A stretch of DNA of 32,000 nucleotides, from positions 1,920,001 to 1,952,000 of the forward strand of contig NZ_CP042905.2 of the NCBI RefSeq assembly GCF_008000775.2. Reading direction: 5' to 3'. The notes under the pieces were generated by a model that had not been told where the DNA came from, ran no database searches, and saw only the letters and a list, made by a program, of their open reading frames with translations. Of this stretch, positions 1 through 16,280 are shown piece after piece. The number at the start of each line of letters is the position of its first letter. The stretch's first letter is position 1. This DNA is from Promethearchaeum syntrophicum (lineage in GTDB: Archaea; Asgardarchaeota; Lokiarchaeia; Sigyniarchaeales; Promethearchaeaceae). The translations under genes and the position numbers were made by a program.

Positions 1-422
1 TGGATTCTCTTCCCTTTAGAAACTCTTCTTTTGATGGAATTTTCTCAATAGCCTCACTGCATCATCTAAGAAGTTTAAAAGAACGTCATAATACGATAAT
101 GGAGATAAATAGGATTGGGAGAAGAAATGCCCTTGTTTCTATAACAGTTTGGCGGTTTTATCAAAAAAAATTTCTAAAACAGTTTTTGGAACAATTAAAC
201 AACTCCTTTGATATAAAGGATAATTCTGAGATAGGAGATGTAATTGTTCCATGGATTGTGTCCCAAAAAGGAGGAGAAAAGAAAATTGAACGTTTTTACC
301 ATCTCTTTAGAGTTGTAGAATTCAGACGATTGATGTCTAAATTTGAGAAAATACATAAATCCACAATGGGAAAAGGAAAAAAAAAAGATAATTTTATTTT
401 TATAGGTAGAATAGCTAAATAA
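1..422 (+). CDS. C-terminal part (5' end outside window) of a class I SAM-dependent methyltransferase, Trm9/ALKBH8-like tRNA methyltransferase
   Basis: The frame is open from nt 3: DSLPFRNSSFDGIFSIASLHHL is the typical post-motif II/III region of Methyltransf_11 enzymes. Downstream ...SITVW...DVIVPWIV...ERFYHLFRVVEFRRLM resembles the Trm9 signature (VPW ... RYYHLF..GEL) as I remember it. Confidence 0.55.
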   Translation, partial: DSLPFRNSSFDGIFSIASLHHLRSLKERHNTIMEINRIGRRNALVSITVWRFYQKKFLKQFLEQLNNSFDIKDNSEIGDVIVPWIVSQKGGEKKIERFYHLFRVVEFRRLMSKFEKIHKSTMGKGKKKDNFIFIGRIAK

Positions 423-428
423 TTAACT

Positions 429-941
429 CTAATTTGCGTGACATTGGATGGAGTTAATAAAATTCAATATTGCTTCTTTATAATAATCAAATGCATTTGC
501 TAAACAATTTGCATGAATATGGAACAACCTTTGAGTTAGTTCACAAAAGAAGGTTGCATGAATAACTTTTGATACAAAATATCGTCTTCTATTCATCTGC
601 TGCCTGTTTCCGTACCAGATTGTCATTTCATGGGATAAATGCCATAGACTTTTCTCTATCTTAGATGTTGTGACATTAATCAAAGCATAATTTTGAATAG
701 ACTCGTTAACTATCTTCCCAAGGTGAAAATGACTGGCTTCTAACTTTTTCCATTCAATTGTAATATCTGAATCAGCTCCCCACACATCATCTGAAATTTG
801 AACGGATTTAAATTCGATTCTACCCTCGTCAAGATTTCCCTCCTTTTTAATAAATTTTTTATCACTTGAATAGATATTTGAAATTTTATTAATTACAATC
901 TGGTTTTCTATATTTAGATATTTCCAATTCTTTTGGAGCAT
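429..941 (-). CDS. hypothetical protein (170 aa), no recognisable family
   Basis: Long ORF tightly packed between neighbours. No motif recognised. Confidence 0.45.
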   Translation of the reverse strand: MLQKNWKYLNIENQIVINKISNIYSSDKKFIKKEGNLDEGRIEFKSVQISDDVWGADSDITIEWKKLEASHFHLGKIVNESIQNYALINVTTSKIEKSLWHLSHEMTIWYGNRQQMNRRRYFVSKVIHATFFCELTQRLFHIHANCLANAFDYYKEAILNFINSIQCHAN

Positions 942-1037
942 AATTTATTCTTTACGTCCGTAAATAAAAACATTTTACGCTTCTGATTAAAATTCAGAAA
1001 TGAAAAATTTTTTTTTAAATGGAGTTTTCAAGATGAC

Positions 1038-1517
1038 ATGAACCGAATTATTCGCTTTAGTTTAAAGGAAGTCAAAAAATCGGGTTTAAATATTAAATTG
1101 CTCAAATTCAATAATGTAAAAGTTGATGTGAGAAGAAAAACCGAAAAACCAGCAAATATTGAACTCCTTAAAAAAATGAAGTTAGATCCTTTACCTATAG
1201 GTGGTCAAAAGAAGCCTAAAAAAGTAAAATCAACTAAATCTGCTAAAATTGAAACAGAAGTAAAGGAAATAAAAGAAAAAACAGATGACAAACCCGTTAG
1301 TAAAGAAATAGCTAAATCAGTTCCAAAAAAATCAAAAATATCTAATTTAGAAGATTTAGAAGGAATGGAGCCAAAATATTTGAAAAAATTAACTGATTTA
1401 GGAATTGATTCTCCTTCGAAGATTATGGATGAAGATTTTAAGGAACTTGCTAAATTAATTAGATCAACTCAAAAATTAATTAAAAGTTGGCGAGCTCAAA
1501 TTACTGGGGAAGAATAA
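1038..1517 (+). CDS. lysine-rich protein with C-terminal helix-hairpin-helix-like segment
   Basis: Low-complexity K/E-rich middle. The C-terminal LEDLEGMEPKYLKKLTDLGIDSPSKIMDEDFKELAKLI looks like an HhH/DUF4332-type motif. Confidence 0.45.
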   Translation: MNRIIRFSLKEVKKSGLNIKLLKFNNVKVDVRRKTEKPANIELLKKMKLDPLPIGGQKKPKKVKSTKSAKIETEVKEIKEKTDDKPVSKEIAKSVPKKSKISNLEDLEGMEPKYLKKLTDLGIDSPSKIMDEDFKELAKLIRSTQKLIKSWRAQITGEE

Positions 1518-1519
1518 GC

Positions 1520-2185
1520 TTAATTGGCAATTTCTGCCAATGGAGATTTTATAATATCTATTTTTTTCAGTTTTTTTAGAATTTCAGCTACTTTTTCATG
1601 TGGGATATTTGTTTTTTCTGAAATCTGAAGAGGAGATAATGATCCTCTGCAAATATTAGCAATTGATAAGTCTTCTTCGGAAATTATTTCCATCTTAAGT
1701 AATTTTTCCAAAGTTGAGTCACTCACAATTAATTTTGGTCGATTTTCTGCGATTCTTCCGTCTCGAGTTAGCATTTCGATTTCAATAATAAATGAATTAA
1801 AAATTTCTTTTTTATTCGTTTGTAAGAATTTATCTATATCCATACTATGTTTTTGCCAAAATCTCCTACCCAATGTATCTAAAACCGATAATATTTTTTC
1901 CTTAATATCATCAACATCAGATAAGCAGCATAATAAGATTTTTGCTGGATGGTAATAGTGAATTATTATACTAAATTTATCGATCATTAAAATGCGGGAA
2001 AAATTAGATAGGGCTCTATTTTCTTGTATATTAGAACGTATATCATCCATAATATCGTTGATTACTTGAAAAAAATCACCAAATTCTTTAGATTGAGGAT
2101 AGTCTCGATATTCTATAATGGATAATCCCGTTTCACCATCAATAATATAGATCGCATGCAACATCATAAAACTATTACCAACCAA
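1520..2185 (-). CDS. longin/roadblock-like (SNARE-like superfamily) N-terminal domain fused to a C-terminal winged-HTH
   Basis: The N-terminus LHAIYIIDGETGLSIIEY...ILLCCLSDVDDIKEKILSVLDTLGRRF follows the beta-beta-alpha-beta-beta-beta-alpha pattern of AP-sigma/longin/roadblock domains. The C-terminus LSIANICRGSLSPLQISEKTNIPHEKVAEILKKLKKIDIIK is wHTH-like. The true start may be one of the internal Met residues at codons 7-8. Confidence 0.5.
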   Translation of the reverse strand: MVGNSFMMLHAIYIIDGETGLSIIEYRDYPQSKEFGDFFQVINDIMDDIRSNIQENRALSNFSRILMIDKFSIIIHYYHPAKILLCCLSDVDDIKEKILSVLDTLGRRFWQKHSMDIDKFLQTNKKEIFNSFIIEIEMLTRDGRIAENRPKLIVSDSTLEKLLKMEIISEEDLSIANICRGSLSPLQISEKTNIPHEKVAEILKKLKKIDIIKSPLAEIAN

Positions 2186-2265
2186 CTTATTTATAATTGG
2201 TTGTCAGAATTATTTTTAAATTTTAATCACAAAATATATCAAACCTAAAAAGATATTATTTTTGA

Positions 2266-3552
2266 ATGAGCCAAATATTTAATAAAAAAACTAAAGCAAT
2301 CATCCTAGTCATTTTAAGCATATATTCTCCCCTTTTAATCAGTATTACAATTGAGAGTGCGAATTCTGCTAATGGCGATATTTTTTTTAATGATAATAGT
2401 TCTATCACCTATGAGCTTACTTATACTATTGAATATCAATCCTTTAGATCAGCTTCAACATTTTTTAAAGCTTGGGTCCCAAGGATAGAAAATTGGTCTA
2501 CAGATCAAACTAGTAAATTAATATCTCAAATAAATCCTGAAAATGTAATAGATCAAACTTTTGATGAATATGACATATACAATAATTCTTATGACTATTA
2601 TTACAAAGAAATGGAAGGACTAAATGGAGATCAGTCATTTTATTTGCAGTACAAATATGAGATAACCTCTTCTGGATTTAAATATGAGATTCCCGATAAT
2701 ATAACACTCGATAATTATGATACAAGCTCAAATCTTTACCAATATTATACTTCATATCAACCTTATACTGAAATAAATGATACTAATATTATGAATACCG
2801 CATTAAATGTAACAGATGGGAAATCTTCCTTAAATGAAATGATAGAAGCGATTTATTTATATGTGGTTGAAAATCTTCTCTATGAAGTGTTACCTGATGC
2901 TATTGGAGCTGCTGAAGCTCTCTCGACCAAAGTGGGGGATTGTTCAGAATATTCTTCTCTCATGGTTGCTTTATTAAGAACAGTTGGCATTCCTGCCAGA
3001 AAAGTCCTAGGAATCGCACTCACTGACGAGGATCCTGAAGAACAAATACCGAAATATGATGTAAAAGTTGGGGATGTTTGGTCTTATTCATCAGATTTAA
3101 ATAATGTTCCAGGTCATGCTTGGGTACAATATTATATCCCGGAAATTGGATGGGTTTCTGCTGATCCAACATGGGGAAATGGAGTATATAAAAATAATCC
3201 AGAATATGTTTTAGAATACCTAAATCAAATGGATTATATTCATTTAATAACTTCGGTCGGAGATTATTACGGAGTGGGGATAGAACCTCCATTAGATCTT
3301 ATTGATTCAGATGAGGAAGGAATTGCCGAAATTCCATTCGTCTATGCAATAGGGAATGCTGGATCGTCTTATTCCGAGATATCATTAACTTATGATTTTA
3401 AAGTTATTGATGTAAATTTATCAGGGGTTTCCACAATAGGAATTCCTAATATGTTTATCTTTATAGGTATCGGTGGTGGAATCTTTCTATTATTTGCCTT
3501 AATCGGAATTGCAGGTATTAGGAAAAGAAATAAAAAGGGAAATTATAGATAA
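2266..3552 (+). CDS. membrane-anchored transglutaminase-like cysteine protease domain protein
   Basis: N-terminal hydrophobic signal/anchor (AIILVILSIYSPLLISI). Transglutaminase core Cys motif GDCSEYSSLMVALLRTVGIPARKV, then GHAWVQYY...WVSADPTWG (His/Asp). C-terminal TM helix plus basic tail. Confidence 0.8.
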   Translation: MSQIFNKKTKAIILVILSIYSPLLISITIESANSANGDIFFNDNSSITYELTYTIEYQSFRSASTFFKAWVPRIENWSTDQTSKLISQINPENVIDQTFDEYDIYNNSYDYYYKEMEGLNGDQSFYLQYKYEITSSGFKYEIPDNITLDNYDTSSNLYQYYTSYQPYTEINDTNIMNTALNVTDGKSSLNEMIEAIYLYVVENLLYEVLPDAIGAAEALSTKVGDCSEYSSLMVALLRTVGIPARKVLGIALTDEDPEEQIPKYDVKVGDVWSYSSDLNNVPGHAWVQYYIPEIGWVSADPTWGNGVYKNNPEYVLEYLNQMDYIHLITSVGDYYGVGIEPPLDLIDSDEEGIAEIPFVYAIGNAGSSYSEISLTYDFKVIDVNLSGVSTIGIPNMFIFIGIGGGIFLLFALIGIAGIRKRNKKGNYR

Positions 3553-4958
3553 GTCTGAATTAGAAGTTTGATTCGTTCTTTAAATTTAGGAAAATGTCTT
3601 TCAAATTTTTTTCTTATATTTTCTTCATTATTTGTTAAAGTAAGGAGATATAGAGAATTATCATCCAAGTTAAAATGATTAAATAGAACCATGCTATTTT
3701 CCATCTGCCAAAGAGCTTGATTTTTTGTGATTAACTTAAAATCTGTGAATGTTCTGAATAAATTTTGAAAATGCGGCGCAGAAATCTCTGAAACAAGTTC
3801 AATATCTTTATCAATTGCATAATCACTTAAAATTAAAGAACTTTCATTAAGTAGAAGCATAGCTTGCGCATTTAATTTCGAAGCAAACCATTGTAATTGA
3901 GCAGCAAAAATTTCTTTATTCGGACTAAGTGCATTAATTCCTTCGGAAAATGATTTATTGAGTGAATAAGCCTCGAAAATGGAAGTGTTGAAGAAATGAA
4001 TTGTAAATCCTGTAGAGAATTCAGTGAATTTTTTCTTTAATTTTTCTAGTTTTGCTTTTAGTTCCGGAGTGTCTGAGATATCAGGATCCATTTTATGGAA
4101 ATTAATTATTATTGGTGGATATTGATTGAAGGCTCTCAATATTCCTATAAGCTTACCGAAATATTCAAAAGATTCTTCAAATCTATTATCATCGCGAATA
4201 TCAATGAAGTAAAATAATAAATTGGTATCATAAAGGTACAGATCTGCATTTTTAATATAAGATCTGCGGTATTTTTCTTGCCCTCCAAGATCCCAATCCA
4301 TTATTTGATGTCCTAATACGTTAATTTCTGATCTTTCTATCCCTTTTGTAGGTCTGATTTCAGTAAGTTCACTAAATTTTTCGTGCAATGCTCGTAAATA
4401 TGAAGTTTTTCCTGAATTTCCCAATCCCACAAAAAGAACTTTTAATTTTCTCGATAATTCAATGGGAGTATTAACTTCTGAAATATAATTCTCCACCTTT
4501 TGAGCTAAAGAATTAATTAAATCTCCAATTTCCTCATGGGAAACACCCTCATAAGCTAGCAATTTTGCTGTTTCGGCAAGCATAATTGATAGTTGTTTTG
4601 TATTTTCATAAAGGAAATATGAACGTTTATCTTCAACTAATAAGGAAATAGTAGCTGCTTTCGCTTTTCCTCTGGCAGATTCATCTTTGATTAAAAAGAA
4701 ATAGGTTAAACCAGTGAGTTCCAAATCAGGAAATGGTAAAATTCCAAAATATTTTACTGAATCGAAGAAATTTCCACCCTGGTAGATTTGTTCACCCATC
4801 AAAAGACTTATAGATTTCATCGCGATAATCATCCGATTGTCTTCAGATATAATATCTGGAACACATATCTTTGGAACTGGGCCTTCTTTTTCAAAAACAG
4901 ATAAAATTATGGTGGATGATGTTTCATTCTTGCTGGAAAAGTCTTTTGTTTCTACCAT
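3543..4958 (-). CDS. three-domain protein: FLCN/DENN-type longin-like domain + Arf/Rag-like small GTPase + C-terminal roadblock-like domain (paralog 1)
   Basis: G1 GLGNSGKT (nt 4404-4427). G3 WDLGGQEKYR. G4 HKMD (nt 4086-4097, verified on the DNA). G5 region FNTSIFEAYSLNKSFSEGINALSPN parallels RagA [22 protein letters not shown]. The C-terminal LLLNESSLILSDY... block is roadblock-like. The N-terminal ~165 aa aligns to the FLCN longin blocks (see findings). Confidence 0.75.
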   Translation of the reverse strand: MVETKDFSSKNETSSTIILSVFEKEGPVPKICVPDIISEDNRMIIAMKSISLLMGEQIYQGGNFFDSVKYFGILPFPDLELTGLTYFFLIKDESARGKAKAATISLLVEDKRSYFLYENTKQLSIMLAETAKLLAYEGVSHEEIGDLINSLAQKVENYISEVNTPIELSRKLKVLFVGLGNSGKTSYLRALHEKFSELTEIRPTKGIERSEINVLGHQIMDWDLGGQEKYRRSYIKNADLYLYDTNLLFYFIDIRDDNRFEESFEYFGKLIGILRAFNQYPPIIINFHKMDPDISDTPELKAKLEKLKKKFTEFSTGFTIHFFNTSIFEAYSLNKSFSEGINALSPNKEIFAAQLQWFASKLNAQAMLLLNESSLILSDYAIDKDIELVSEISAPHFQNLFRTFTDFKLITKNQALWQMENSMVLFNHFNLDDNSLYLLTLTNNEENIRKKFERHFPKFKERIKLLIQTYL

Positions 4959-5053
4959 CTAATTTGAGCCTCAAATTTCTTTACTTTCAAAAAATAAAAA
5001 CTAATTTAATTTAATTTATTATTTGCTAATTATAAACATATTAGGTAATTCTT

Positions 5054-5920
5054 TTGGATGATACAAAAAATACAAAAAATCTTCTCGAGAAGTTAAAAAA
5101 AGAATTAGTACTTTTATACGAATATAGTGAAAAACCTTCGAGATTTCCGATAGAATATCACTCAGGTATGGAAGTTTTAGAAGATATTAATCTCTCTAAA
5201 TCATATAATGAGAAAACAACAAAAAGAAAAGAGTACTGGTCAAAAAAAGATCATAAAATTGAAAATCAAAAAAGGGAAATGTATAAGAATTTTCAAAAGT
5301 TTCAACCCCATAATATAATCAGAAATAAAGATAAAACATACACTTATTCTCCACATGAAAGGACTTATTCATCGCTTTTCCAATGTATCAAAGATCTTAC
5401 TGAAAAATTCTCAATTGAAGATTTACTTACTGGATTCACCTGGCAAGAATTTGAACAATTTATAACCTCTGCTTTGGATCATTATGGTTATCACGCTTTT
5501 AGAACATTTAGATACACTGTAAATAAGAAACGTCATGAAGTCGATGTCATTGCCCGTGAACGTAATGATATATTGTTTATTGATGCTAAAAGGTGGAACT
5601 CTAAAACTGCAAATGAATCTGCCCTAATCAAAGCAGCTCAAGAACAATATCTAAGAGCGCAGAAGCTTGTATTAAATCCAAAAATTGCAGGCCAATTACT
5701 CCAAAAATTACATATACCAATAAATCAAAAATTTAAAAGCTGTAATATCTACTCAATTATCTTAGTTTCGAGTAATTTGAAGGAAATTATTACTGCTGAT
5801 GGGATACCTATTTTGGATTTTGCCCGATTTAATGCTTTTCTTAATAATTTTCACTCTACAAAAAGTAATTTAAAAAGTGTTAAGTTGTCCAAAGTAATAT
5901 TTCAAAAAAAACTACTATGA
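5054..5920 (+). CDS. PD-(D/E)xK superfamily nuclease-like protein (NERD/Mrr-like core)
   Basis: ...HEVDVIARERNDILFIDAKRW fits the E/D-x-D...(D/E)-x-K core of NERD/Mrr-type restriction-endonuclease folds. The ORF begins with TTG at 5054. Confidence 0.5.
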   Translation: MDDTKNTKNLLEKLKKELVLLYEYSEKPSRFPIEYHSGMEVLEDINLSKSYNEKTTKRKEYWSKKDHKIENQKREMYKNFQKFQPHNIIRNKDKTYTYSPHERTYSSLFQCIKDLTEKFSIEDLLTGFTWQEFEQFITSALDHYGYHAFRTFRYTVNKKRHEVDVIARERNDILFIDAKRWNSKTANESALIKAAQEQYLRAQKLVLNPKIAGQLLQKLHIPINQKFKSCNIYSIILVSSNLKEIITADGIPILDFARFNAFLNNFHSTKSNLKSVKLSKVIFQKKLL

Positions 5921-5927
5921 ATTATTT

Positions 5928-6953
5928 TTAAATAATTCCTTGTAGTAAAGTTATAAAAGAATCGATTTTTTCACGCAAGAGGTGTTCTCCTCTCTTAGGA
6001 GTCATAATAATTAGAAAAAGGGGTTCAGAAGCTCGTTTAATGCGGAATTGATCAGTGAAAAATCGTTTGTTTCCTCGTTCTATAATCATTGATTGTTCCC
6101 CTTGAACGTCATCTTCTAAGGAATCGTTCAGAGTAAGAAAATACGGAGTAGATTTCGTTAATATTTGCTTTGATTCTTCATTCTCGAAAAATTGTCCTAT
6201 TACCAGAGAATTAGAGTCCAAAACTAAGATTGCATTGCAATTTGAATCCAAAGATTCTGCAAATTCTTGGATTGTCTTATCTAATAACTCAGATTGCGGG
6301 AAAATTTTTAACAATAGATCTGAAAATGATGAAATAATTGACCATAAATCGTAAATTGTCGTGTTTGAATAGGAGACATTGAACTCTTCCTCAATAATAT
6401 TACGAATTTCATCTTTCAACTGTGAAATTAATCCTTCTAGATGGATTCCCTCGTTTTTCGCATAAGTTGGGTCAAATTTATGGAAAAATATGTATATTAG
6501 CGGTGAAATTTCTAATTTTCTGAATTCTTTAATTACATCCGAAAAGTATGAAATCGATTCTTCCATCCGTCCTCGATCTTGAATATCAATTACATAAATG
6601 CAGACATTAGATCTATCGAAATACTTCGTCGGCTCTTTTAAATAAGCGATACGGTATTTTTCTTGCCCCCCTAAATCCCATTCAGAAATATCATTTCCTA
6701 AAAATTCGAAAATTTTGCGTTGCGCTTGTCTAGTCGGTTTTAACATGGCAATCTGTGAAATTTCTTTTTGAAGAACCTTAATAATGCTTGTTTTTCCCGA
6801 GTTATCAAGTCCTGTGAAAAGGATCTTCTCGGAAATTTCCCGAGATTTGGTTTTTTTAATGATGAGAGTTTTTTCAAGATCATATTTTATATTCTTTTTT
6901 TTCCCATGAATATCGTGAGAATCTTGCTCAGATTGGATTTTATGTTCAAGCAT
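5928..6953 (-). CDS. Arf/Rag-like small GTPase + C-terminal roadblock-like domain (paralog 2, no longin domain)
   Basis: G1 GLDNSGKT. G3 WDLGGQEKYR. G4 HKFD (nt 6471-6482, verified). G5 NTTIYDLWSIISSFSDLLLKIFPQ. C-terminal AILVLDSNSLVIGQFF... is roadblock-like. Confidence 0.75.
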   Translation of the reverse strand: MLEHKIQSEQDSHDIHGKKKNIKYDLEKTLIIKKTKSREISEKILFTGLDNSGKTSIIKVLQKEISQIAMLKPTRQAQRKIFEFLGNDISEWDLGGQEKYRIAYLKEPTKYFDRSNVCIYVIDIQDRGRMEESISYFSDVIKEFRKLEISPLIYIFFHKFDPTYAKNEGIHLEGLISQLKDEIRNIIEEEFNVSYSNTTIYDLWSIISSFSDLLLKIFPQSELLDKTIQEFAESLDSNCNAILVLDSNSLVIGQFFENEESKQILTKSTPYFLTLNDSLEDDVQGEQSMIIERGNKRFFTDQFRIKRASEPLFLIIMTPKRGEHLLREKIDSFITLLQGII

Positions 6954-7257
6954 TGTATGTATTTTCCCCCACTCAATAAAGTAGTAGTATTATACCCCTA
7001 AAAAGTATTTGTAATTCCTTGTTTACCGATTGATAAATTTCTTAGAATATTTTTAATAATTTCGTTTTGAGAAATATTATTTAATCTGATAATTTACAGA
7101 AATTTTTTTTGATATATAAATGGAAAAAAAAGACGGCTATATAAAATAATGGGATCAATTTGAGAGGATTAATATTTGGATTGGAGTTTTTTAACCCCAC
7201 GAATTTTATGAGAGATGTTCTTCGATTATTGATAGCAATTTAAAGAGGGTATTGGGA

Positions 7258-8091
7258 TTATTTGAGAATTTTAAGTCCATTTGGTAAATCGAATGAAATT
7301 TTTTGGGAGATTTGCAGGAGGGCGGGATCTGTATACGGCAGAGAGTTTTCGAGGATTTTTTGGATGGTGGGGGTGGCTTCATGGATGAGGCGTTCAATGA
7401 GGGCGGGAGGCATGGCGGATGGGTTTGAGATATAATCGTGGGCGAGTTTTTCGACGGGAGTTTTAAAGTATTCGTAGAGGGGAGGGAGGTTTTCGTGAAT
7501 GAAAGCCTTTTGAAGTCGTTCATGATAGATTTGAACTTCTTTAATTTCGTTTGGTTTGGATTCATTTGGGTTGGATTCGAGTGTGCTGAATTTGAGCGGG
7601 TCAGATTCGAGTGTGCTGAATTTGAGTGAGTCAGATTCGAGTGTGTTGAATTTCGATGGTTCGATGGAATCTGAGTTGATGCAGTTTTTAAATAGTTTCA
7701 TACCGTGGGGAGCGAAATCAAAAAGTGTGGAGCTGTCTGTGTAATAAGGAAGTAAGTAGTGAAGAAATGGGAGTGATAAACCCGAGAGTGAGCGAATTTT
7801 TGTAGGAGTATTGAAAATAATTAATGTTTCTGATATTTTGTAATCTTCATTGAACTCATCGAAAATCTTTTTAAAATCCGTGTTTTCGGGGAAAGAGGGG
7901 AATCCTTCGAAGGAGTGGATTAGGCAGTTTTCAAATGTAAATCCAAAGAAACTGTTAGGAAAGGATGACTCTTTAACAAAGGAAAAATCTTTTATGATGT
8001 AATCCTCAACAAATAGGTGGTTATGCTGAATCTTCCCGGGTAAATCGAATGGACCGGCGATTTTAAATTGAACATAATCATCAGATCCCAT
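7258..8091 (-). CDS. hypothetical protein with internal 10-aa tandem repeats; GC-rich relative to surroundings
   Basis: I place the start at the ATG at 8089-8091 (MGSDDYVQFK...). The upstream extension of the track ORF to 8223 is low-complexity F/L-rich sequence that runs through the inverted-repeat arm. No family recognised. Confidence 0.5.
   Translation of the reverse strand: MGSDDYVQFKIAGPFDLPGKIQHNHLFVEDYIIKDFSFVKESSFPNSFFGFTFENCLIHSFEGFPSFPENTDFKKIFDEFNEDYKISETLIIFNTPTKIRSLSGLSLPFLHYLLPYYTDSSTLFDFAPHGMKLFKNCINSDSIEPSKFNTLESDSLKFSTLESDPLKFSTLESNPNESKPNEIKEVQIYHERLQKAFIHENLPPLYEYFKTPVEKLAHDYISNPSAMPPALIERLIHEATPTIQKILENSLPYTDPALLQISQKISFDLPNGLKILK
7574..7663. repeat. 3 x 30-bp in-frame tandem repeat inside CDS 7258-8091
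   Basis: gattcgagtgtgctgaatttgagcgggtca / gattcgagtgtgctgaatttgagtgagtca / gattcgagtgtgttgaatttcgatggttcg. These encode the repeated ..KF(N/S)TLES(D/N).. peptide on the minus strand. Confidence 0.9.
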
Positions 8092-8118
8092 AAATATATT
8101 ATAATAACATAAATATTT

Positions 8119-8196
8119 AATTGTTGTGGGAAGCGGAAATAAAAGCAAAAAAAGCGGAAATAGTTTGAAAAAAGCAGAAAAAAACACAAAAAAATT
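8119..8196. repeat. left arm of a long imperfect inverted repeat (pairs with 8994-9067)
   Basis: aattgttgtgggaagcggaaataaaagcaaaaaaagcggaaatagtttgaaaaaagcagaaa... compared with the reverse complement of the right arm, aattgtggggagcggaaataaaccaaaacaaaatggaaataaaagcaaaaaagcagaaa.... Identity is about 75% over ~75 nt by hand alignment, with anchored blocks agcggaaataaa and aaaaaagcagaaa in the same order. Confidence 0.7.
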
Positions 8197-8460
8197 AATA
8201 CTAAAAAATAAAATTGCTTCCAAAAAAAGATATTACCCAGCTTAAAAAGATAAATCTGTAACTCGTCTTTTTCTATCTTAAGAGGGTTCAAAATATAAGT
8301 GATTTCTAACTTTTCATCAGAAATGTTTTAAATTCATCTGCGAAGCTTCGATTTTGCCAATTTTCATGGACTTCCATTAAAAATCTCCGATATAAATAGC
8401 GAGAAAAAAAACAAATAAAAATTTTTTTTACCCCCCCCATATCACCCATACAAAAAAGAG

Positions 8461-8856
8461 AGTTGCAAATTTATCTTTGTTTTGGCTCTTTTTTTGGACC
8501 TTTTTTAAGTATAGTCTTAGATTTATCTTTGTTTCTGGACCTTTTTTAGGCAAAGTTGCAATTTTATCTTTGCTTCTGGACCTTTTACCAGGCTTTTTTT
8601 AGACTAAGTTGCAAATTTATCTTTTTTTGGGAGCATTTTGAAGCAAAGTTGCAGAATTATCTTTGCTAAAACATCATTAATGTCAAAAATATTGATTTGT
8701 CCATCTTTGTTTAAATGGTGAAATTTGAATTTTAGAGAAAAAAGAGAGTTGCAAATTTATCTTTTGGAATTAAAAATAATCGAAGTTTTTATACCCCTTT
8801 TCCGTAGTATAACCTTTTTTTTTTAGAGAAAAAAAAGAATTATAAATTTATCTTTT
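8461..8856. repeat. array of at least 7 same-orientation copies of a 19-nt motif (consensus AGTTGCAAATTTATCTTTG) in non-coding DNA
   Basis: Copies at 8461, 8513, 8554, 8607, 8647, 8747 and 8838 (spacing 52, 41, 53, 40, 100, 91 nt). The sequences between copies are also related (ctggacctttt). The shorter core TATCTTTG recurs at 8701-8709 and 8945-8953. Confidence 0.85.
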
Positions 8857-8993
8857 GGTAAAAAATCACCACGTAGATTTGAAAGTTTCATTTTTTTACT
8901 GATCCATTTCATTTGAGATTCAATATTTTTTGCATTTATTTCCGTTATCTTTGTTATGAGCCCTTGTTATTAATTCTGGGAAAGAAAAATCAC

Positions 8994-9067
8994 AATTTTT
9001 TGAATTTATTTCTGCTTTTTTGCTTTTATTTCCATTTTGTTTTGGTTTATTTCCGCTCCCCACAATT
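8994..9067. repeat. right arm of the long imperfect inverted repeat (pairs with 8119-8196)
   Basis: Contains three TTTATTTCC/TTTATTTCT units (two TTTATTTCC plus one TTTATTTCT variant), the reverse complement of GGAAATAAA. It ends ...tttatttccgctccccacaatt. Confidence 0.7.
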
Positions 9068-9132
9068 GTATGGGTAAATTTTATGGTGAAAGAATATAAA
9101 AATGGGAGAAAAAAAGAAGACGTAGGTATAAC

Positions 9133-9927
9133 CTATCGGTGAAACGAGACCATCCATGGGTATGGGCTTGGTAGTGGGTACGAAATTTGCACAAAATCCG
9201 GTTTTAGTGCAAAGAACTGGTCGTAAATCTTTCTATTGAAATTGTAGCTTTCCAATAAGCTTTCCTGCACGAACGTCCAATAGTTATTTTGAAGGCGGTC
9301 CCCCCAGTTATAATTCACAAAAGGGTACTGAGTAGCCAGATTATATGTGGATTTTTTTTTCTGATAAAACCAAGTAAAATGATAGTTCGGAACATCGTTG
9401 ATGTAATTTCCGGTCCAATGGATTCCGAATGATCCTTGAATCATTGAAGCATACATTTGATTTGGCTTATTTGTCATACCCCATACTTCCCAATTTTTCC
9501 CATCTATAGGATGTTCATTAAACAGACTCTTCACGAAGTTTTCAAGCGAGAAATCGAAAATCGGGTCGTTGTATGCGTTGTGAAGCCCAATCATGAACCA
9601 TTTAAACTCGGTCTCGGTCATAAGTGGGAAGTCTTTACCGATATGTTGACAATTCCGAAGTATTTGCATTTTTTCGGTAGGAGAATTACAAATATAAATC
9701 ATCGGCATCTTGTCAGCAAGCAGTTGCCCAGCATCCCAATCCTTTGTCTCGATATAACCTCTCTCGTATCCTCCGATCCGTTCAATCGCAACCAGATCGG
9801 TAATTTTTCCTGCTCTATTTTTTAAAGAGAGAAGAAAATCGTAGAAGATGGGTTTATTTTGCGTGCGAAGCATCTGATCAGCGATCCTTAAAGACGTTGT
9901 CATCTTATGCGTTTCACTAAATGTCAC
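9133..9927 (-). CDS. hypothetical protein (264 aa), Trp/Tyr/Asn-rich, no recognisable family; GC-elevated
   Basis: Long uninterrupted ORF with non-repetitive composition. No motif recognised. Confidence 0.5.
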   Translation of the reverse strand: MTFSETHKMTTSLRIADQMLRTQNKPIFYDFLLSLKNRAGKITDLVAIERIGGYERGYIETKDWDAGQLLADKMPMIYICNSPTEKMQILRNCQHIGKDFPLMTETEFKWFMIGLHNAYNDPIFDFSLENFVKSLFNEHPIDGKNWEVWGMTNKPNQMYASMIQGSFGIHWTGNYINDVPNYHFTWFYQKKKSTYNLATQYPFVNYNWGDRLQNNYWTFVQESLLESYNFNRKIYDQFFALKPDFVQISYPLPSPYPWMVSFHR

Positions 9928-9978
9928 TTGAACGGTTTCATCCCCGTGAACAAAGAGAAGATAATCCCAATAACCAAG

Positions 9979-11454
9979 ATGTCTTCCTCATTCAATTCCC
10001 CCATTTGGAATCAGACGTGGGATGGTTCTGCTTACGAGACTGGAACTTCGATCTGGAAGAATGAAAGTTATCTATATACAGCGGGATACACCAATAGTTT
10101 TGGAGCTGGATCTAGTGATCTCTTATTAATTAAATGGAATACTGATGGAAGCCAAATCTGGAATCGGACTTGGGGAGGCGAAGGAATAGAAGTTGGTGTA
10201 ACTGTCTGGGGAGATGAAAATTTTCTATATACAACAGGATACACCGACAGTTTTGGAGCGGGTAATTTTGATCTCTTTCTTATCAAATGGACCACTGAAG
10301 GAAATCAAATCTGGAATAGAACTTGGGGTGGTATGGACGACGATTTTGTTCGATCATTGTGGGGTGATGAAACATATTTATATACAACAGGATTGACAAA
10401 AAGTTTCAGCCCTGCAATATGTGATCTAGTCCTTATCAAATGGACCACTGAAGGAAATCAAATCTGGAATAGAACTTGGGGTGGTATGGATAGTGACATT
10501 GGTAATACTATCTGGGGGGATGAAAGTTTTCTATATACGACAGGATATACTAAAAGTTGTGGAAAAGGGGAAGGCGATCTTTTAATAGTTAAATGGGACA
10601 CCGATGGAACCCAAATCTGGAATCGGACTTGGGGTGGTACTCGTTTAGATTATGTTAATTCCGCATGGGGAAGTGGTTCGTATTTATATTTAACTGGTTA
10701 TACTGGAAGTTATAGTACTAATGATTATGACCTATTTCTAACAAAATGGGACATCGATGGAAATTTAATTTGGGAACAAATATTGAAAGGTTTTAATTAC
10801 GATAGAGGTAAATCTATTTGGAGTGATGGACTAAATTTATATGTACTTGGGACATTAAATACTTTGGGACCAAATATACGGGATTTCTTATTAATTAAAT
10901 GGGATACCGATGGTAACCAAATTTGGAACCAAACTTGGGGATACCCTGAAGATGATTTCGGCTATTCTATTTCGGGAGATGAAATATATTTATATCTGGT
11001 GGGGCATACTAAAAGTTCTTTTGTGAATGAGGGTGCTCTCTTTTTATCTAAAATTCATAAAACTGTTCTTCAAAAACCAATTTTCCAACACATTTCTCCA
11101 AATCCAGATCCCGATGGCAATATAACCTTGAATTGGAATAATGTTGCTGATGCTACATCTTACAGTCTTTATCGAAATACAAATCAAATTCCCAAAATAT
11201 CTGGTTTAGCACCGATTTCGGTATCTGCGACTACATCTTACTCAGACAATAATTTAACGAATAATACGTATTATTATGTAGTAGTTGCTAAAGATGAATA
11301 TCGAAAATCAGATATATCGAATTGTGAATTGGTGGAAGTGCAAATAGTCCCTCCGATTCCTAAAGAAGGTGGAATTTCTGGTTTTCCGTTTGGTTCTCTA
11401 TTATCTATTTGGAGTATGAGTATTATTTTCCTATTAGTAAAGAGAAGAAAATAG
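9979..11454 (+). CDS. surface protein: seven-blade SBBP-type beta-propeller + FN3/Ig-like domain + C-terminal TM anchor with basic tail
   Basis: Seven ~51-aa repeats of the form W(N/E)(R/Q)TWGG..D.G..IWGD..YLYTTGYT.SFG.G..DL.LIKW.T.GNQI. Then NITLNWNNVADATSYSLYR...YYYVVVAKDE (FN3-like). C-terminus SGFPFGSLLSIWSMSIIFLLVKRRK. I prefer the ATG at 9979 over the track start at 9907, which would overlap the divergent gene. Confidence 0.8.
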   Translation: MSSSFNSPIWNQTWDGSAYETGTSIWKNESYLYTAGYTNSFGAGSSDLLLIKWNTDGSQIWNRTWGGEGIEVGVTVWGDENFLYTTGYTDSFGAGNFDLFLIKWTTEGNQIWNRTWGGMDDDFVRSLWGDETYLYTTGLTKSFSPAICDLVLIKWTTEGNQIWNRTWGGMDSDIGNTIWGDESFLYTTGYTKSCGKGEGDLLIVKWDTDGTQIWNRTWGGTRLDYVNSAWGSGSYLYLTGYTGSYSTNDYDLFLTKWDIDGNLIWEQILKGFNYDRGKSIWSDGLNLYVLGTLNTLGPNIRDFLLIKWDTDGNQIWNQTWGYPEDDFGYSISGDEIYLYLVGHTKSSFVNEGALFLSKIHKTVLQKPIFQHISPNPDPDGNITLNWNNVADATSYSLYRNTNQIPKISGLAPISVSATTSYSDNNLTNNTYYYVVVAKDEYRKSDISNCELVEVQIVPPIPKEGGISGFPFGSLLSIWSMSIIFLLVKRRK

Positions 11455-14753: not shown

Positions 14754-16280
14754 ATGAAAAAAAATTTACTCTTTCCATTTGACGATTTATTGGTTAAAGG
14801 AGCGATCTTTTCGATCTATGGAAGCATGGGTCCTGAGGCTGTTTTTTTTTATCCATTTCCTAGCGATTCAACATATTCTTTTCCAGAAATGGATAATCAT
14901 GCATCCAGTAAATTTGAACAAAGGAATTACATGCAAATTGCGGTTAAAAGTATTTCTTTGCTTTTAGTTGATTATTCTTTTGAAGATGAAAAGAATCTCC
15001 AACTGAAAGATGTTCATATATTTGGAGTTTTGCCCTATCCCGATTTAAATTGCATTGGTCTCACATATTTTACATATTTCTTCTCCCAAGAAAGAAAAAG
15101 GTTTATTCCTGTTTCTCTTTCATTACTAGTTCATGAAAATAAAAGGAGTTTTATCTATGATTCGATTAATCGGTTGAAAAAACCAACAAAGGATTTTACA
15201 CAATATTTAATCGAATTATGTATTAAAAATAAGATATATTCAGAACTTGAAGGACAAGATTATTGGGAAAATGTATTAACTAAATTTATTGATTTCTTTG
15301 GTGAAATTCAAAAAATACAGAATCAACCAATCAGCCCAATTACTAAAAAGAGAAGGATTAAGATATTATTTACAGGTTTGGAGAATACAGGAAAAACTAG
15401 TTTTATTTTAACAGTCAAACGAAAATTTAGCGGATTACCAACAATTTTACCGAGTACGGAACCAATGAACGAACCTTTAAATTTCTTAGGAACAACGATA
15501 ATGAAATGGGATATTCCGGGTAAAAAAGATTTCAGAAAAGCTATATTAGAAAATTCTGAATTATATTTATTTGAATCTGATGTTATTTACTATTTTATTG
15601 ATGTTATGGCCCCTAGAATAGATGAATCTCTTGAGTTTTTAGCGAAAGTTATGGATAAACTGCATGAATATGAGAGTAAAATTCCGATTGTCTTCATAAT
15701 TACGAAAGTTGATGAAGATGTCGCAGATTCCATTGAAATTAAAGATGCTATCGCTGAAATACGGCAATCACATCTAAAAATTATTGGAGATCATCCATAT
15801 AAATTCTTTAACACTTCCATATTTTCGATTTACTCAGTGTTAAATGCATTTTCATATGGACTTCGCAATCTATCCCCAAACCGGGAAATGATAGAACATC
15901 TTTTATGGGGATTTTTGGCTCGGAATGAATTTGTTACTGGTTTATTAGTCAATGAGAGCGGTTTAGTCCTTGCTGCACAACAAGTTAATGTCAAAGGACC
16001 AGAAGATGTCTTAAACCGTAAACAAATTTTTGAAATTGCCGCTCCACAATTTGCAATACTTGCTAAACAATTCCAAAGTTTTGATGATAAGATTAGTGAT
16101 ACAATAAAATACCAATTTTCGGAAAAAGATATAATCATTTTGAAGCGATTCATTGTTGAAGATTTTGCATTTTTCTATATATTTTATACAAAAAAACCAG
16201 AATCATTGAAAAATTTAGAAAAAAACTTTCCAGAATTTCTTGATCGGATAAGAAATCTTCTCTTGCTATATATTAAATAA
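14754..16280 (+). CDS. three-domain protein: FLCN/DENN-type longin-like domain + divergent Arf/Rag-like GTPase + roadblock-like domain (paralog 3)
   Basis: Collinear with paralog 1 over the full length: AIFSIYGSMGPEAVFFYPFP / MQIAVKSISLLLVD / FGVLPYPDLNCIGLTYF / LSLLVHENKRSFIY. G1 GLENTGKT. G3 WDIPGKKDF (nt 15510-15524, Gln replaced by Lys). G4 TKVD (15702-15713). G5 FNTSIFSIYSVLNAFSYGLRNLSPN. Roadblock-like GLLVNESGLVLAAQQ. Confidence 0.7.
   Translation: MKKNLLFPFDDLLVKGAIFSIYGSMGPEAVFFYPFPSDSTYSFPEMDNHASSKFEQRNYMQIAVKSISLLLVDYSFEDEKNLQLKDVHIFGVLPYPDLNCIGLTYFTYFFSQERKRFIPVSLSLLVHENKRSFIYDSINRLKKPTKDFTQYLIELCIKNKIYSELEGQDYWENVLTKFIDFFGEIQKIQNQPISPITKKRRIKILFTGLENTGKTSFILTVKRKFSGLPTILPSTEPMNEPLNFLGTTIMKWDIPGKKDFRKAILENSELYLFESDVIYYFIDVMAPRIDESLEFLAKVMDKLHEYESKIPIVFIITKVDEDVADSIEIKDAIAEIRQSHLKIIGDHPYKFFNTSIFSIYSVLNAFSYGLRNLSPNREMIEHLLWGFLARNEFVTGLLVNESGLVLAAQQVNVKGPEDVLNRKQIFEIAAPQFAILAKQFQSFDDKISDTIKYQFSEKDIIILKRFIVEDFAFFYIFYTKKPESLKNLEKNFPEFLDRIRNLLLLYIK

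Follow-up and report, generated by a model that had tools for sequence, protein, structure and literature searches.

The stretch considered here is a window of 32,000 nucleotides from the genome of Promethearchaeum syntrophicum MK-D1 (contig NZ_CP042905.2, positions 1,920,001 to 1,952,000 of the forward strand); all coordinates below are those of this window, which is AT-rich overall (∼31% GC). Between two genes that are both transcribed leftwards lies a block of 940 bp (8125–9064) that begins with TGTGGG and ends with CCCACA, with inverted arms at its two ends and an array of short repeats in its interior. We consider it probable, at roughly 0.8, that this block is a gene-less, non-autonomous DNA transposon that entered the MK-D1 intergenic spacer by either a cut-and-paste or a replicative route. 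From left to right, the features of the element and its immediate surroundings are:

7258–8091, minus strand: downstream flanking gene, 277 amino acids, no Pfam family
8092–8119, minus strand: the downstream gene's own promoter and leader, TAAATATTTATGTTATTATAATATATTT followed by the ATG, conserved in the relative
8120–8124, no strand: target-site duplication, left copy, ATTGT, identical to 9065–9069
8125–8194, plus strand: left arm with the TGTGGG terminus; units from 8131, 8152 and 8172, with cores GCGGAAATAAA, GCGGAAATAG and GCAGAAAAAA
8211–8263, minus strand: left subterminal region with outward 19-mer-type units, a full copy at 8245–8263 (AGTTACAGATTTATCTTTT) and a partial one at 8211–8232
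8264–8460, no strand: unique core without repeats, containing a C8 run at 8431–8438 and a 47-amino-acid reading frame without a family match
8461–8925, plus strand: tandem array of seven AGTTGCAAATTTATCTTTG-type 19-mers (8461, 8513, 8554, 8607, 8647, 8747 and 8838), all directed toward the right end
8926–8953, minus strand: inner right unit R4, a hybrid of an arm-type unit TTGCATTTATTTCCG and then a 19-mer tail TTATCTTTG
8989–9064, minus strand: right arm with the CCCACA end; units start (plus-strand positions) at 9030, 9009 and 8989, and the inward spacing of 21 and 20 bp mirrors that on the left
9065–9069, no strand: target-site duplication, right copy, ATTGT; the relative's contigs (L060 and L061, below) have a single ACAAT at the corresponding point
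9133–9903, minus strand: flanking gene DSAG12_02313, a hypothetical protein of Promethearchaeum syntrophicum, with T-runs after its stop codon

The ends of the insertion are sharply defined. The left terminus TGTGGG starts at 8125, the right terminus CCCACA finishes at 9064, and ATTGT abuts both of them, as read directly from the sequence; at the local base composition a 5-bp match at such fixed positions is expected by chance with a probability of about 0.002. TG...CA termini combined with a direct duplication of 5 bp are what DDE-type transposition leaves behind. The block has no coding capacity. The initial annotation of this DNA saw no credible open reading frame (ORF) here; none of the ORFs in the block has a Pfam match at E≤1, no coding remnant of a transposase was found, and neither tRNA nor Rfam searches of the block gave a match.

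A relative with an unoccupied site provides evidence for insertion. Among 5.8 billion proteins, the sole non-self homolog of DSAG12_02313 is P0002, which is 69% identical and whose gene is carried by two short contigs of separate origin, L060 (Logan SRR14865926) and L061 (ENA ERZ4220937). The next gene on the same strand of these contigs begins MSSDERVYFNLEG, and the MK-D1 gene to the left of the block begins MGSDDYVQFKIAG. In the relative, the gene for P0002 and the next gene are separated by an uninterrupted spacer of about 135 nt that includes ACAAT once (in L060, ...AAAATTTTCCCAAACAATTAAATACTCATGTT...), and neither contig contains an arm unit or a 19-mer. When 8120–9064, which comprises the element and one ATTGT, was deleted from the MK-D1 sequence prior to alignment, the relatives' spacer spanned the resulting junction as a single high-scoring segment pair of 73 nt with 78% identity (E = 1e-12), in which the joined MK-D1 sequence, ...AAAATTTACCCATACAAT followed directly by TAAATATTTATGTT..., is aligned to the L060 segment given above. 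The single-piece alignment and the 5-bp duplication together indicate that the 940 bp arrived as one unit, and of the options raised for this block in the initial annotation it is thus the mobile element that is borne out. Without the element the MK-D1 spacer is 96 nt long; T-runs follow the upstream stop codon, and about 30 nt separate a TATA-like box from the downstream ATG. The element landed immediately upstream of this box, and its right end lies 68 nt from the stop codon of DSAG12_02313.

The orthologs of DSAG12_02313 in L060 and L061 contain an in-frame TAA (L060 787–789), and clear homology to the MK-D1 protein runs about 40 codons beyond it (L060 787–909); the gene may be a pseudogene, its stop codon may be read through, or the two contigs may share a sequence variant. 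The surroundings of the block had also been described as a GC-anomalous island, a description that we find weak: the higher-GC gene nearby is matched by a syntenic ortholog in the relative and so is not evidently foreign.

The long imperfect inverted repeat reported at the edges of the block is real. A repeat search pairs 8124–8193 with 8996–9065 over 70 nt, free of gaps and with 79% complementarity, and local alignment of the two 200-nt edges gives a score of 33, far above the 11.4 ± 1.6 (maximum 19) of 500 dinucleotide-type shuffles (z ∼13); the highest score that any other 200-nt piece of the window reaches is 17. The arms as first drawn need to be trimmed, since their outermost 'ttgt' is part of the 5-bp duplication that flanks the element. 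No copy of the 20-mer TTGTGGGRAGCGGAAATAAA would be expected in the window, yet it is present exactly twice, with one copy per orientation. Three units of about 20 bp with the core GCGGAAATAAA make up each arm, spaced by 21 and then 20 bp on both sides, or about two helical turns. One copy of the GCGGAAATAAA motif is on the plus strand, at 8133, and three are on the minus strand (8935, 9005 and 9046); degenerate copies of the same type lie at 8154, 8174 and 9025. The arm units are presumed transposase-binding sites. R4 (as a unit, 8926–8944) is a fourth right-side unit, situated 70 nt further inward, and the two ends differ in their number of units, three at the left and, counting R4, four at the right.

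Frames running inward from the GTG of TGTGGG are open in both arms (8126–8245 on the plus strand and 8920–9063 on the minus strand) and specify similar lysine-rich peptides (MGSGNKSKKSGNS... and MGSGNKPKQNGNK...), which are probably a by-product of the A-rich repeats. These peptides have no Pfam match, and a protein search with the concatenated peptides of all open arm frames, used to catch ORFs called over other copies of the element, returned no homologs.

The interior of the element carries the 19-mer AGTTGCAAATTTATCTTTG, for which there are six matches with three or fewer mismatches in the window, compared to 0.04 expected, with all six inside the block; the array noted in the initial annotation is therefore genuine and, within the window, confined to this place. 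Seven copies in the same orientation had been listed, and their positions are correct, although those at 8513 and 8838 are more degenerate (with 3 and 2 mismatches to the RTTGCNNNTTTATCTTT core, respectively) than the plus-strand copies at 8461, 8554, 8607, 8647 and 8747, and the reverse-strand copy at 8245–8263 was overlooked. The C8 run is likewise present, with its position off by one in the earlier description. Every 19-mer faces outward: seven are directed to the right end, while one full copy and the partial copy at 8211–8232 are directed to the left. The ATAAAT core of the reverse copy lies 126–131 nt from the left end, and that of R4 lies 128–133 nt from the right end; by this near-equal distance the reverse copy is the left counterpart of R4.

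The top self-match of the array is at an offset of 93 nt (identity 0.43; mean 0.31, standard deviation 0.03), with sub-periods of 52 and 41 nt. R4 is approximately in register with the 93-nt array, and TTGCA(AA)TTTAT is common to the 19-mer and the arm unit. The array would most simply have originated by tandem amplification of R4, the innermost unit of the right end. It could form a long subterminal field of outward sites, either extra protein-binding sites or TATA-like outward promoters. The 19-mer was not found upstream of other genes in the window and is thus not a general MK-D1 promoter within it, and in viral contigs it has 43 single, unrelated matches, which fits the chance expectation for an AT-rich 17-mer.

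Run DRR199588, which belongs to the gene-expression data for cultured MK-D1, an Asgard archaeon (Imachi et al. 2020, PMC7015854), gives a view of transcription at this locus. Three contigs assembled from this RNA sequencing (RNA-seq) run are 100% identical to the window and cover 1–8247 and 8634–10308, with a 386-nt core at 8248–8633 absent. No repeat of at least 31 nt that would explain this gap was found, whereas the gap at 10309–10460 does have such a repeat; the core of the element seems to be silent. The contig with the downstream gene (7258–8091) takes in the whole left arm, up to 8247 and at least 156 nt upstream of the ATG, and on the other side coverage that starts at the right arm reaches about 430 nt into the array. 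This pattern fits outward transcription from within the element, as a lead only. We also asked whether the 19-mers might start transcription at the contig ends, 8247 and 8634, and dropped this because these ends have no consistent distance to any 19-mer; they are reported here simply as a coverage gap.

To the right of DSAG12_02313 is a gene for a protein of 515 amino acids without a Pfam family (9907–11454), which contains 153-nt tandem coding repeats at 10052–10611; an exact 59-mer within it (10279–10337, identical to 10432–10490) causes the break in the RNA-seq assembly at 10308/10461. Elsewhere in the window, three paralogous genes for Gtr1/RagA-Arf-type GTPases are found within 13 kb (3543–4958, 5928–6953 and 14754–16280), and a Mrr/NERD-like nuclease gene (5054–5920) is flanked by two of the three.

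Several points weigh against the interpretation of the block as a transposon. A precise deletion in the relative, in place of an insertion in MK-D1, is formally possible, and it needs an exact coincidence with the boundaries of the inverted repeat. The orthology of the downstream gene is weak, and rests on position and about 25% identity. The 32-kb window contains no gene for a transposase, an AAA+ helper or TniQ, and no recombinase gene either. No second copy or autonomous partner was found in scans of genome, metagenome and viral collections with 19/20-nt end sequences. Local alignments of the arms to the left and right ends of Tn7 have scores within the shuffle distribution. Finally, at 940 bp the element is long for a miniature inverted-repeat transposable element (MITE), and no second copy of it was detected in these scans.

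The scans for other copies warrant some detail. There is none elsewhere in the window. The genome collection yielded two chance matches to the end in GC-rich bacteria and did not return the window itself (MK-D1 being masked or absent), and the viral collection yielded nothing related. The metagenome scan gave ten matches, nine of them plainly due to chance and one, L057, ambiguous. In this low-GC sediment contig (Ga0114923_10138870, 370–540), TGTGGGAAGCGGAAATAAATCAAAAC is a 27-nt match to the right arm with 93% identity, and it is positioned between two outward GTTG(C/T)..TTATCTTTTGG motifs upstream of a gene for a PEMT/ICMT-like membrane methyltransferase. The L057 match may have been left, as a solo relic, by a related element, or it may be a chance occurrence. 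The RNA-seq contigs traverse both MK-D1 arms without a break in the assembly graph, which is a weak argument against other expressed identical copies. The cognate transposase would be encoded elsewhere or have since been lost. We found no literature specific to MK-D1 transposases or origins.

We also note that the target flank at 9065–9075, compared with 8119–8130, reads ACCCATACAAT on the minus strand and resembles an element end plus the duplication (CCCACA+ACAAT), and that L057 likewise has ACCCAT just outside TGTGGG. These resemblances hint at insertion beside end-like sequences.

A replication origin headed the options first put forward for the block, and might be either chromosomal or from a captured plasmid, with opposed iteron-like or origin recognition box (ORB)-like arms that bind an initiator and flank an A/T-rich unwinding region. 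Archaeal origins share this general layout, and the inverted repeated units around an AT-rich, repeat-laden core do recall an archaeal oriC with its ORB repeats, unwinding element and adjacent orc1/cdc6. However, the whole block is an insertion that is absent from the relative's syntenic spacer and bounded by a 5-bp duplication, its termini are TG...CA, the window contains no gene for Orc1/Cdc6 or another initiator, and the GC-skew profile of the 32 kb tracks gene orientation only. Given the empty site, the duplication and the lack of an initiator gene in the window, we reject the origin as extremely improbable. The same empty site and duplication contradict a regulatory region that evolved in place and was never mobile, whether a landing pad for transcription factors (also proposed initially) or chromatin proteins, or an array of small-RNA promoters, because they show arrival as a unit. 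Such a region would account for the GCAAATTTATC within the 19-mer, which is like a B recognition element (BRE) and TATA box and akin to boxes of the TTTTTATTT type that lie upstream of other genes of the window, for spacings of 41, 52 and 93 nt that are near whole helical turns, and for the similar motifs in a promoter region of L057, from other sediment. Yet no other upstream region in the window contains the 19-mer motif, the core at 8248–8633 is missing from the RNA-seq assembly and no Rfam family matches, and we regard regulation without mobility as very unlikely. A regulatory effect acquired after insertion is possible and compatible with a transposon.

Two further explanations were considered. 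An inverton would be flipped between its arms by a site-specific recombinase, which would give the outward 19-mer promoters a new direction, and it is true that inverted repeats bracket TATA-like motifs and that RNA-seq contigs extend outward from both sides. Invertons have short, near-perfect cores, though, and the arms here run to 70 nt, consist of phased sub-repeats and are only 79% identical; both directions are already faced by outward motifs, the assembled RNA-seq contigs have a single orientation, the window is devoid of recombinase genes, and neither the flanking 5-bp duplication nor the empty site is expected. We give the inverton almost no credence. Insertion with flanking direct repeats would also be produced by a mobile element of another enzymatic class, namely one moved by a tyrosine or serine recombinase or by a casposon-type enzyme. 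Integration by these recombinases leaves direct repeats of the att site without long terminal inverted repeats, and casposons give duplications of 14–15 bp, in contrast to the 5 bp here; the TG...CA termini, the 5-bp duplication and the multi-site inverted ends instead fit DDE transposition, such that a different enzymatic class is highly improbable.

Returning to the transposon, its assignment to the Tn7/Mu/IS21-type DDE transposons is suggested by architecture and not by sequence. Terminal TG...CA dinucleotides and a short duplication directly abutting both ends, as seen here, are features of DDE transposons of the Tn7/Mu/IS21/IS481/IS3 type; a cognate DDE transposase is encoded neither in the element nor in the 32-kb window. 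In the group of Tn7, Mu, Tn5053 and IS21, a DDE transposase binds repeated sites, pairs the ends and carries out strand transfer with a 5-bp stagger. As a control, Tn7 in plasmid R721 has TGTGGG...CCCACA ends, a duplicated GTGCG and several repeated sites per end. The MK-D1 element is like the Tn7 family in its 5′-TGT...ACA-3′ termini (with TGTGGG as in Tn7 itself), in a target-site duplication of 5 bp, in having several repeated sites of ∼20–22 bp per end in unequal numbers on the two sides, and in the location of one end tens of bp downstream of a gene's stop codon, here 68 nt past DSAG12_02313 in the single insertion known. This geometry would be compatible with the site- and orientation-specific insertion of the Tn7 family next to a gene that TniQ/TnsD recognises. 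It differs in that tnsA, tnsB, tnsC and tniQ are missing from both element and window, such that it could only be a non-autonomous derivative, in that the neighbouring 'target' gene encodes a poorly conserved hypothetical protein, and in the 93-nt internal tandem array, which Tn7 ends lack. Only the terminal TGTGG(G)..CGGA.AATAAA stretch resembles a Tn7 end; this terminal resemblance is real, and homology of the arms to Tn7 was dropped because the alignment is no better than those of shuffled sequences.

Phage Mu, Tn552, Tn5053/Tn402 and IS21-type elements use a DDE transposase plus an AAA+ helper and, as is well established, have TG...CA ends, 5-bp duplications (4–8 bp in IS21) and phased transposase-binding repeats; Mu additionally has an internal enhancer built of additional sites. 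The MK-D1 element, which encodes no transposase, is likened to these by general features and not by its end sequences. With MITEs, such as those of Sulfolobus and the haloarchaea among the archaea, it shares the absence of genes, terminal inverted repeats, a target-site duplication and residence in an intergenic spacer, but its composite arms of 70 nt are much longer than the usual MITE repeats. Asgard metagenome-assembled genomes (MAGs) have been reported to harbour Tn7-family elements that have tgt ends and duplicate 5 bp, and one of these elements has been reconstituted (Thesier et al. 2025, bioRxiv 10.1101/2025.07.27.667033); the TniQ-positive archaeal assemblies are all MAGs, and MK-D1 is not among them (bioRxiv 10.1101/2025.07.27.667033).

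We infer that the acting enzyme would have been a DDE transposase of the retroviral-integrase superfamily (of the Tn7 TnsB, Mu MuA or IS21 IstA type). It would bind the phased ∼20-bp GCGGAAATAAA units of both arms and pair the two ends, with the 3′-OH exposed at the terminal ...CA; the target would then be attacked with a 5-bp stagger, and repair of the gaps would duplicate ATTGT. The transposase family and the binding role of the repeats in this scheme, like the origin and role proposed above for the array, are deduced from the layout of the element; what the sequences show is the insertion with its duplication, the build of the two ends and the lack of coding capacity. It is unlikely, if worth entertaining, that the element belongs to a still-active, undescribed Tn7/Mu-like family native to the Lokiarchaeia, in which the 19-mer field would be a portable promoter array that rewires neighbouring genes. 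If so, the element would supply the 5′ leader of the downstream gene at this locus, and its defined ends, together with the cognate transposase once that is found, could be developed into a tool for transposition in an Asgard archaeon in culture.

The biological principle at work is an ordinary one, that of a non-autonomous DDE-type transposon, and the element is apparently an orphan member of the class with TG...CA ends and 5-bp duplications, with an unusually long array of outward subterminal repeats. Mobile DNA of the Asgard archaea is scarcely known, and nearly all that is known comes from metagenome bins. Here, in the first Asgard archaeon brought into culture, a transposon insertion is cleanly bounded, and its exact ends, the target duplication and the empty site are all defined. 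Its recognition removes a false candidate for a replication origin, and the repeated end units provide a bait for finding the cognate transposase. It also offers an example of an element that has settled between a terminator and a promoter and joined a neighbouring transcript.

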